UHGV virus genome: UHGV-0360087
Direction: 5' to 3' (one strand)
Origin: a virus
Length of the DNA stretch: 10,606 nt
Shown piece by piece: positions 666 through 1,355 of this stretch (its first letter is position 1; the number at the start of each line of letters is the position of its first letter). Under the pieces are notes generated by a model that saw nothing but the letters and a program-made list of their open reading frames with translations, had not been told where the DNA came from and ran no database searches. Made by a program: the position numbers and the translations under genes.

Positions 666-667
666 AT

Positions 668-695
668 AAAAAAAACGGGACCACGACCAGTCCCG
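668..695 (-). terminator. Intrinsic terminator, strongest for leftward (minus-strand) transcription
   Basis: A8 at 668-675 is followed by the hairpin CGGGAC-N8-GTCCCG at 676-695. Read on the minus strand this is a 6-bp GC stem followed by U8. On the plus strand the stem lacks a U-tract, so it is a weak terminator for the tail-fibre gene. Confidence 0.65.
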
Positions 696-857
696 GAACC
701 ATGAGTTTTAGGGTATTAGTTTGTTATCATAGTTAGCGTGCTAAGTATGCCATGTCAGGTTGATTAGTGAAGTGATGTTGTTCGCATTTTTGCACGGCGG
801 AGAATATTCAGATTTTTGGAAATCCATATTTTTCCCGTGCGCGATTACATGCTTCAT

Positions 858-1142
858 TTACGATGCTATTTTCGCCGGACATTGCGAATTCCCTGCATGT
901 GGACGGTTTTTGTAAACAGAGCAATATGCGTTTTCTCCGGGGGGGGGGCCGGCAAGAGCGCCACATCGGGGATTTTTCTGATTGGTGCCGCGCATACAGC
1001 GATGAAAAGGAGATATTTGCTCAGTGAGACTGACCGAAACCTTTCCGCCAGCATCGTCAGCTTCTGCCCAGTAAAAAGAGACGCGGAAAATGCACAACAG
1101 GCACCACACGTCATGCATGGATTCAGATTGCTCATAATTCAC
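858..1142 (-). pseudogene. YkgJ/UPF0153-like CxxCxxCC zinc- or iron-chelating domain gene, split across two reading frames
   Basis: Frame A (ATG 1135 to 866) begins [16 protein letters not shown], the CxxCxxCC hallmark. Frame B (1142 to 858) carries the remaining cysteines ([22 protein letters not shown]). One extra T in the T4 run at 1087-1090 would fuse them into a 92-aa protein with 8 cysteines. The family assignment is from memory and was not searched. Confidence 0.45.
939..948. repeat. G10 homopolymer (C10 on the coding strand, encoding Pro-Pro-Pro)
   Basis: Ten consecutive G read directly at 939-948, inside the YkgJ-like ORFs. Confidence 0.95.
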
Positions 1143-1355
1143 CAGTACAGCTATAAATCGTAAAGAGAACAGCGGTACATCGTATGTAAGAACGTACCGC
1201 GGCTGGCTGGTGAACTTCCGATAGTGCGAGTATTGAATGATTTCCAGCCGTTACCGATTTTACTATGTTTTAGTAGAACACTTAGACAAAACTGAGACAC
1301 ACAAAGCTTTGTACTGGATTGCTAGGCTTTGTGCTATTCGATAGTTTAAGGTCGC

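Follow-up and report, generated by a model that had tools for sequence, protein, structure and literature searches.

The question raised by this locus is why a prophage with an IntS-type integrase gene beside the tRNA gene argW should hold, between that integrase gene and a convergent tail-fibre gene, a segment of 690 bp, when the same position in the CPS-53 element of Escherichia coli K-12 is occupied by an O-antigen glucosylation operon. The original prediction, made from the letters of the sequence, interpreted the segment as the outcome of cargo replacement or deletion at a known variable locus. Its account of K-12 was accurate, the gene order in MG1655 being argW, intS, yfdG/H/I (homologues of gtrA/B/S), yodE, tfaS and yfdK, and the coordinates and size of the gap (positions 666-1355, 690 bp) agree with the ORF ends, the stop codon (TGA) of the DUF4376 gene being located at 663-665 and that of IntS at 1356-1358. 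In what follows, "the window" refers to the whole stretch of 10,606 nucleotides that was analyzed (UHGV virus genome UHGV-0360087), all positions are those of the window unless another sequence is named, and L numbers designate the fetched loci used for comparison.

Layout of the gap and its flanks

The gap is composed of four parts, being a putative terminator on the minus strand, a ykgJ pseudogene, a non-coding element of approximately 95 bp and the 3' flank of IntS (Table 1).

Table 1 Features of the 690-bp gap and of the genes adjoining it, with the evidence on which each is based
Feature	Position	Strand	Basis
DUF4376 tail-fibre-associated gene	45..665	+	Pfam PF14301, PHROG 1141
Intrinsic-terminator-like hairpin	668..695 (stem-loop 676-695, T8 at 668-675)	-	Terminator scan
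ykgJ-family (CxxCxxCC, PF03692) pseudogene, same direction as IntS	808..1135	-	tBLASTn, alignments
ykgJ-proximal leader	1136..1176	-	Common to K-12 ykgJ upstream region, L001 and L002
Conserved lambdoid non-coding element, ~95 bp	1177..1271		blastn matches, alignment
IntS 3' flank: hairpin ~1299-1334 and U-rich stretch	1284..1355	-	blastn breakpoint, minus-strand fold
IntS-type tyrosine integrase, 385 aa	1356..2513	-	Pfam Arm-DNA-bind_3, Phage_int_M, Phage_integrase
argW, tRNA-Arg(CCT)	2675..2749	-	ARAGORN; Rfam tRNA, 60.5 bits

The left-hand gene matches its Pfam family at 62 bits and its PHROG, annotated as "tail fiber protein", with E = 5e-71, while "DUF4376 domain-containing protein" is the annotation found downstream of stf in the prophage loci L004, L013 and L014. 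A protein comparison revealed no similarity of its product to K-12 tfaS/yfdK. The expectation of a tail-fibre-assembly gene at this flank is thus borne out as far as a convergent tail-fibre gene is concerned, but the encoded protein is a DUF4376 protein and not one of the Caudo_TAP type. The start codon of this gene is uncertain, and homology to related prophages begins inside it, either from 137 or from 464 onward, whereas window 1-136 has a match in none of the fetched loci. These internal mosaic breakpoints suggest that the N-terminal part of the tail-fibre-associated protein may be swapped between prophages.

The hairpin that adjoins the DUF4376 stop codon (8-bp stem with 5 GC pairs) is the sole terminator reported by the scan. 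A hairpin between the two convergent genes is therefore present, as was predicted, but the notion of a terminator shared by both has to be modified: the T8 tail is found on the minus strand only, and the structure therefore looks like a terminator of the ykgJ/IntS direction rather than a symmetric one. Probably, it ends the transcript running in that direction. Two further hairpins, internal to the gap, were seen in the fold only, which was obtained from the minus strand of 1136-1360 as a single sequence.

The right-hand flank is the integrase gene, the longest ORF of which reaches 2549 (minus strand). Its product shares 99.5% protein identity with K-12 IntS; the exact protein was present on all 24 of the 24 contigs read, with the same neighbours at 8 of 8 places among the matches listed. 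The attachment site used by the IntS element resides in the 3' end of argW. At the opposite side of the integrase gene, the U-rich/hairpin region ends exactly where homology to K-12 ends, and its hairpin would represent the putative integrase terminator as well as the boundary of the integration module.

Comparison with K-12 CPS-53

When the window is compared by blastn with the K-12 locus (L005), homology to CPS-53 encompasses argW, IntS and the first 72 bp beyond the stop codon of the latter, and ends at 1284, K-12 gtrA beginning 79 bp beyond this breakpoint. The claim that the window and CPS-53 have the same flanks consequently holds for the IntS/argW side, but not for the other one, where homology has stopped at 1284 and where the DUF4376 gene bears no relation to tfaS/yfdK. 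With respect to membership of the CPS-53 type, the argW-adjacent IntS is present, while gtr homologues and homology to a tfaS/yfdK-type flank or backbone are absent. That the gap is devoid of gtr was confirmed by tBLASTn of K-12 GtrA/YfdG, GtrB/YfdH, GtrS/YfdI and YodE against positions 600-1400, the best match having E = 1.2.

The position 3' of IntS is, as had been proposed, a variable cargo position, since it is occupied by gtrABS in K-12, by oac in Sf6, by neuO in CUS-3 and, in STEC prophages, by NleC with a HECT E3 effector or by OspG, and by nothing in HK633-type and several myovirus-type elements. The frequency of these arrangements was surveyed in 5,426 complete E. coli genomes. A full IntS was present in 1,860 of these, and the K-12-type IntS-gtrA junction in 489 of the 1,860; 362 of all the matching genomes match this junction at 99% identity or more, many of them probably being K-12 laboratory derivatives. 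IntS is joined to the conserved element in a further 205 genomes. gtr is therefore a minority occupant, and the premise that argW-associated IntS-type elements normally carry gtr at this position largely falls.

These data bear on the explanation that gtrABS was lost from, or exchanged in, a CPS-53-type element whose IntS and tail-fibre-assembly genes were conserved on either side, the 690 bp being the substitute left behind. It would be consistent with the location of gtrABS in K-12, directly 3' of an IntS with 99.5% identity, with the occurrence of the IntS-gtrA junction in 489 genomes and with the variability of the position among IntS phages. We nevertheless consider it very unlikely, given that CPS-53 homology stops 72 bp after the IntS stop codon, that the left flank is unrelated, that there is no Gtr remnant, and that the content of the gap is contiguous with both of its neighbours in many other prophages. 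Because of this contiguity, the difference from CPS-53 would be one of whole backbones, and not a cassette replacement or deletion; what had been taken for the scar of a replacement corresponds to a normal lambdoid end block. The absence of gtr should accordingly not be read as the loss of a serotype-converting function.

Breakpoints and relatives of the gap

Mapping of the breakpoints by blastn, which had been suggested along with the original prediction, resolved the gap into two overlapping homology blocks. The first of these is a lambdoid end block comprising DUF4376, the terminator and ykgJ, which is present at four other sites, namely near btsS (matching 464-1263), beside the pao genes (464-1271), at a tRNA-Ser gene of strain 55989 (137-1169) and at potB (137-1135). 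The annotated gene order at those prophage ends is J, lom, stf, DUF4376 and then convergent ykgJ. The window locus is placed in this block as one lying between the tail-fibre-associated gene and the integrase, with a content that varies among homologous prophages. The second block is that of IntS, the left-hand start of which is located at 1046 in STEC prophages, at 1158 in HK633 and L007, at 1177 in myovirus-type and OspG-bearing elements, at 1284 in K-12 CPS-53, and, in the podoviruses, at 1310 in HK620, at 1324 in CUS-3 and at 1363 in Sf6. The IntS 3' flank is the only part of the gap in common with CPS-53, HK620 and CUS-3. Several homology blocks end at 1263-1271. The end block and the IntS block overlap across 1046-1271, so that there is no novel joint within the gap.

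Positions 137-2750 were retrieved as a whole, at 99.0% identity and in the order yfdC-argW-IntS-gap-DUF4376, from at least eight draft assemblies. The surrounding genes (yfdC, mlaA, fadL, dsdCXA and evgAS) are in an order consistent with E. coli/Shigella. None of the 5,426 complete RefSeq E. coli genomes contains a contiguous ykgJ-IntS stretch covering at least 80% of 900-1500, and an exact-pattern scan for the ykgJ-IntS spacing in species-representative genomes gave 0 hits. The former result suggests that the ykgJ-IntS arrangement is lineage-restricted, and the nested breakpoints would indicate its ancestry with respect to other IntS elements.

Considering these blocks together, the 690 bp most probably belong natively to a lambda-like (siphovirus-type) prophage, of which they would form the end segment and which makes use of the IntS/argW module, as opposed to being a modified CPS-53 slot, and we hold this interpretation with considerable confidence.

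A frameshifted ykgJ gene as the passenger of the gap

The small Cys-rich gene that had been noticed in the gap is real: a ykgJ-family gene is present in three frame fragments, and the ORF at 866-1135(-), which begins with the same 16 residues as YkgJ (residues 1-16), is the first of them. By tBLASTn, residues 1-16 of K-12 YkgJ match 1135-1088 (100% identity), residues 7-77 match 1103-903 in a second frame (71%) and residues 76-106 match 912-820 in a third (77%), so that the protein is covered only when the three frames are combined, and an uninterrupted reading frame of ~109 aa is absent. The raw ORF fragments of the gap had no match in Pfam, whereas the frame-repaired translation matches PF03692 at 42.1 bits (cut-off 23). 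That amino-acid similarity to YkgJ is still high in all three frames suggests that the inactivation would be recent.

The lesions were called from alignments in which the window copy was compared to K-12 ykgJ and to the intact prophage copy in L014. Compared to the intact copy, the window contains A4 instead of A5 at 1087-1090 (-1; the plus-strand view of a T5 run), has lost one copy of a CCGT repeat at ~901-906 (-4), and displays G10 instead of G7 at 939-948 (+3). Both frame-breaking lesions are common to the independent prophages L001, L002 and L004, located at other chromosomal sites, for which reason the -1 and -4 lesions appear to be real and inherited rather than errors of this assembly. 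The equivalent genes in L001, L002, L004 and L013 carry the PGAP label "frameshifted", and an exact-pattern scan for the -1 allele in species-representative genomes returned 0 hits. The intact protein from L014 (WP_032169753.1; PF03692 at 46.1 bits) has exact matches on 640 contigs, and it is this commonness of the intact prophage-type protein which suggests that the window holds a decayed, presumably non-functional version of a gene still intact in other prophages. No PHROGs family was found for the intact YkgJ homologue, and YkgJ is therefore not a typical phage protein. It is possible that a truncated product is expressed from the window allele. Programmed -1 frameshifting at GCA-TTT-TCC was examined as a way of reading through the first lesion and was rejected, since this is not a slippery heptamer and the second, -4 lesion lies downstream.

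The G/C homopolymer in prophage ykgJ was compared between the window (939-948) and its equivalents in L001, L002, L004 and L013-L022. It was observed to differ in length in almost every independent copy, the lengths being G6, G7 (the intact copy), G8, GGGGAGGG, G10 and G11, with one copy among these interrupted by an A; such variation could be due to slippage or to sequencing error. In this context, prophage ykgJ might be regarded as a phase-variable contingency gene governed by slippage at the G/C tract, the window representing a revertible OFF state. The variation in tract length just described would fit with this, as would the finding that G8 in L013 versus G7 in L014 is the only frame-shifting difference between these two copies, and that the annotation of neuO, the occupant of this slot in CUS-3, lists 19 copies of a heptanucleotide repeat. 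Homopolymer lengths, however, are prone to sequencing error, and the -1 and -4 lesions are present in addition to the tract. Because the segment from the first lesion to the tract is out of frame with the ATG, the full frame of the window allele is restored by no tract length, and the sequence implies that residues 17-63 could not be translated from the ATG. Phase variation is thus regarded as a highly improbable explanation of the window, whose ykgJ would instead be a dead passenger of the lambdoid end segment.

Upstream of the ykgJ start codon, a hairpin at ~1170-1198 was apparent in the single-sequence fold, its 3' arm and U-rich tail being located in the leader. The scan that detected the minus-strand terminator at 676-695 did not find a sigma-70-like promoter upstream of ykgJ.

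The conserved element between ykgJ and IntS

The non-coding element has counterparts both in phages and in the chromosome. The sequence between ykgJ and ecpE in K-12 (304207-304310) is 96.2% identical over 104 bp to window 1160-1263, and the element is also present in the b region of lambda (24170-24265, between ea31 and ea47), in phi80, HK75, HK633, mEp phages and many Stx phages, and in Salmonella phage FSL SP-016 and Citrobacter phage Chris1, its conservation overall being 80-96%. On the minus strand it consists of a near-invariant core of ~65 nt followed by a hairpin, the stem of which is variable between copies and which, in the alignment, has a textbook-like terminator shape in HK633 and phi80. 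For 11 copies of the element, the consensus obtained by RNAalifold was weak (covariation term 0.28). No Rfam family for the element was found over 560-3000, where argW was accompanied by just two sub-threshold hits, being CssrB (23 bits versus a gathering score of 76) and Plastid-ycf2 (29 bits versus 65.7, overlapping argW).

In several RefSeq records, tiny ORFs annotated as fragments of "capsid protein", "nucleocapsid protein" or "helix-turn-helix" extend over the element (L001 6507-6602, L002 6509-6598, L009 4954-5100 and L006 4886-4990); these look spurious. The HK633 record (L010) labels the element, at 4026-4106, as "attP". In Sf6, which has the same type of integrase, the annotated attP core is located upstream of int and overlaps an argW-like sequence, and the label in HK633 is probably a misassignment by analogy with lambda.

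In lambdoid prophages, a ykgJ/ecpE-like sequence adjoining exchangeable effector loci was previously described (Nakamura et al. 2021, PLoS Pathog, PMC8112680); in that study a 96-bp stretch was named "attB-in-PP_2", and other lambda-like phages were reported to be integrated into it. The PPompW_EH1846 genome of that study aligns with window 1153-1263, and the element at 1177-1271 is accordingly a putative member of the published family by comparison via the PPompW segment, the 96-bp core itself being given only in figures S6 and S9 of that work.

The element could therefore be envisaged as a secondary attachment or recombination site, i.e. a landing pad for lambdoid phages and for the exchange of cargo. 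Its 96% identity to the K-12 ykgJ/ecpE spacer, its homology to the PPompW segment, the phages integrated into the 96-bp sequence (PMC8112680) and the ends of several homology blocks at 1263-1271 all speak in favour of such a role. On the other side, the window and L015-L022 each contain a single copy of the element without any interruption, with no flanking direct repeats around a prophage, and 4,956 of the 5,426 complete genomes have retained an intact chromosomal ykgJ-ecpE junction, none of 40 sampled rows having a prophage there. This junction survey thus provided no independent sign that the element acts as a chromosomal attachment site, nor did the 40 sampled rows provide an occupied ykgJ/ecpE site of the kind that would support ykgJ having been captured through aberrant excision. 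The element is carried by lambda, by phi80 and by HK phages, which differ in their integration-site specificities, and it is therefore not the cognate attP of all of them. On balance, a landing-pad function is judged unlikely. A wider proposal, in which the element acts as a landing pad or as a small regulatory RNA, complete with a terminator, that drives cargo turnover, while the G-tract is a switch of ykgJ in lineages with an intact gene, is viewed as quite doubtful; if true, the element would drive the turnover of cargo at the tail-fibre/integrase junction of lambdoid phages. As it stands, the ykgJ/ecpE-like element of lambdoid phages is still without an assigned function, and in the lambdoid end segment it is placed as a conserved non-coding component.

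A second prophage at argW

On the far side of argW, window 2674-10606 is 99.99% identical to locus L023, in which the order is dsdC, argW and a second prophage, and in which the IntS site is empty. The start of this second prophage lies directly against the argW 5' end. Its first gene is that of a different integrase (2945-4114, +), and it also carries RecT, Gam and KilR, a repressor of the S24 type, YdaS/YdaT and replication genes O/P. The argW gene of the window is thus sandwiched between two prophages. Homology to genomes with yfdC on the second-prophage side stops at 2750, the tRNA 5' end; for a tRNA gene, the 5' side is an unusual location of integration. In L026 and L027 (8290-9552), the 3' side of argW holds a P4-like satellite (420-aa integrase, AlpA and Toprim primase) and no IntS element, which suggests that argW may be a multi-element hotspot.

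Proposed organization of the gap

Reading on the minus strand from IntS, the lambdoid end segment would begin with the 3' flank hairpin and U-rich stretch, the presumed end of the portable module. It would then continue with the non-coding element of ~95 bp that is common to lambda, phi80, HK and Stx phages and the chromosomal ykgJ/ecpE spacer, followed by a ykgJ-family "moron" presumably inactivated by the 1-bp and 4-bp deletions, with its G-tract expanded, by ~110 bp of 3' untranslated sequence, and by the putative intrinsic terminator adjoining the stop codon of the convergent DUF4376 gene. As such, the gap may be considered as a transcriptional buffer between the convergent late (tail) and integrase units, to which a dead passenger gene has been added, and no functional protein is predicted to be produced from it in this genome. 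The feature is an ordinary phage mosaic, all components of which are already annotated or published; its value extends little beyond a correct annotation, a precise breakpoint map of the junction being a side product.

Comparison with known systems

Phage backbones that are unrelated to each other have exchanged the IntS/argW integration module, and the occupant 3' of IntS tracks the backbone that received the module, P22-like backbones being associated with O-antigen/capsule modifiers and lambda-like backbones with ykgJ or type III effectors. A similar arrangement is that of HK633 and related IntS-bearing siphoviruses, in which a side tail fibre gene is convergent on IntS with the element and the IntS flank between them, as in the window. 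HK633 matches window 1158-2689 at 94.5%; in contrast to the window it is without ykgJ, and ~20 bp separate the end of its tail fibre gene from the element. The lambdoid right-end block (J-lom-stf-DUF4376-ykgJ-attR) of E. coli 55989, SHP24, 14EC001, cM8a and NMBU-W12E19 shares 93.5-96.6% nucleotide identity with the window from DUF4376 through the terminator and ykgJ, including the same frameshift lesions in L001, L002 and L004, but these prophages are located at other sites and have no integrase beside ykgJ, whereas the block of the window runs into IntS/argW.

The exchangeable effector loci of STEC prophages (PMC8112680) occupy the same position, bounded by tail fibre genes on one side and by the prophage end on the other. 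In L003 and L011, homology to the window extends from 1046 onward and includes a 5' remnant of ykgJ together with the ykgJ/ecpE-like spacer, the distal part of ykgJ being replaced in the STEC versions by nleC, a HECT E3 effector, ospG or nleG. The window is without an effector and has kept the whole of ykgJ, though frameshifted, and we infer that the effector-bearing versions arose by replacement of distal ykgJ in a window-like arrangement. The P22-like phages Sf6 (oac) and CUS-3 (neuO) likewise carry cargo directly 3' of the same IntS, co-directional with it and facing a convergent tail gene. Theirs, however, is a podovirus backbone with a tailspike and with an active surface-polysaccharide modifier as cargo, while the window combines a lambda-like backbone with a dead gene.

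The chromosomal ykgJ of K-12 (b0288) belongs to the same PF03692 CxxCxxCC family and is matched by window 824-1263 at 84.5% nucleotide identity; it is intact and located next to the ecp fimbrial operon, whereas the window copy is prophage-borne and frameshifted. Finally, CPS-53/KplE1 (argW-intS-yfdGHI-tfaS...torI) has the attachment tRNA argW, IntS and the 72-bp IntS 3' flank in common with the window, but beyond 1284 it continues with gtrABS, yodE, tfaS and yfdK, where the window continues with the lambdoid element, the ykgJ pseudogene and DUF4376.
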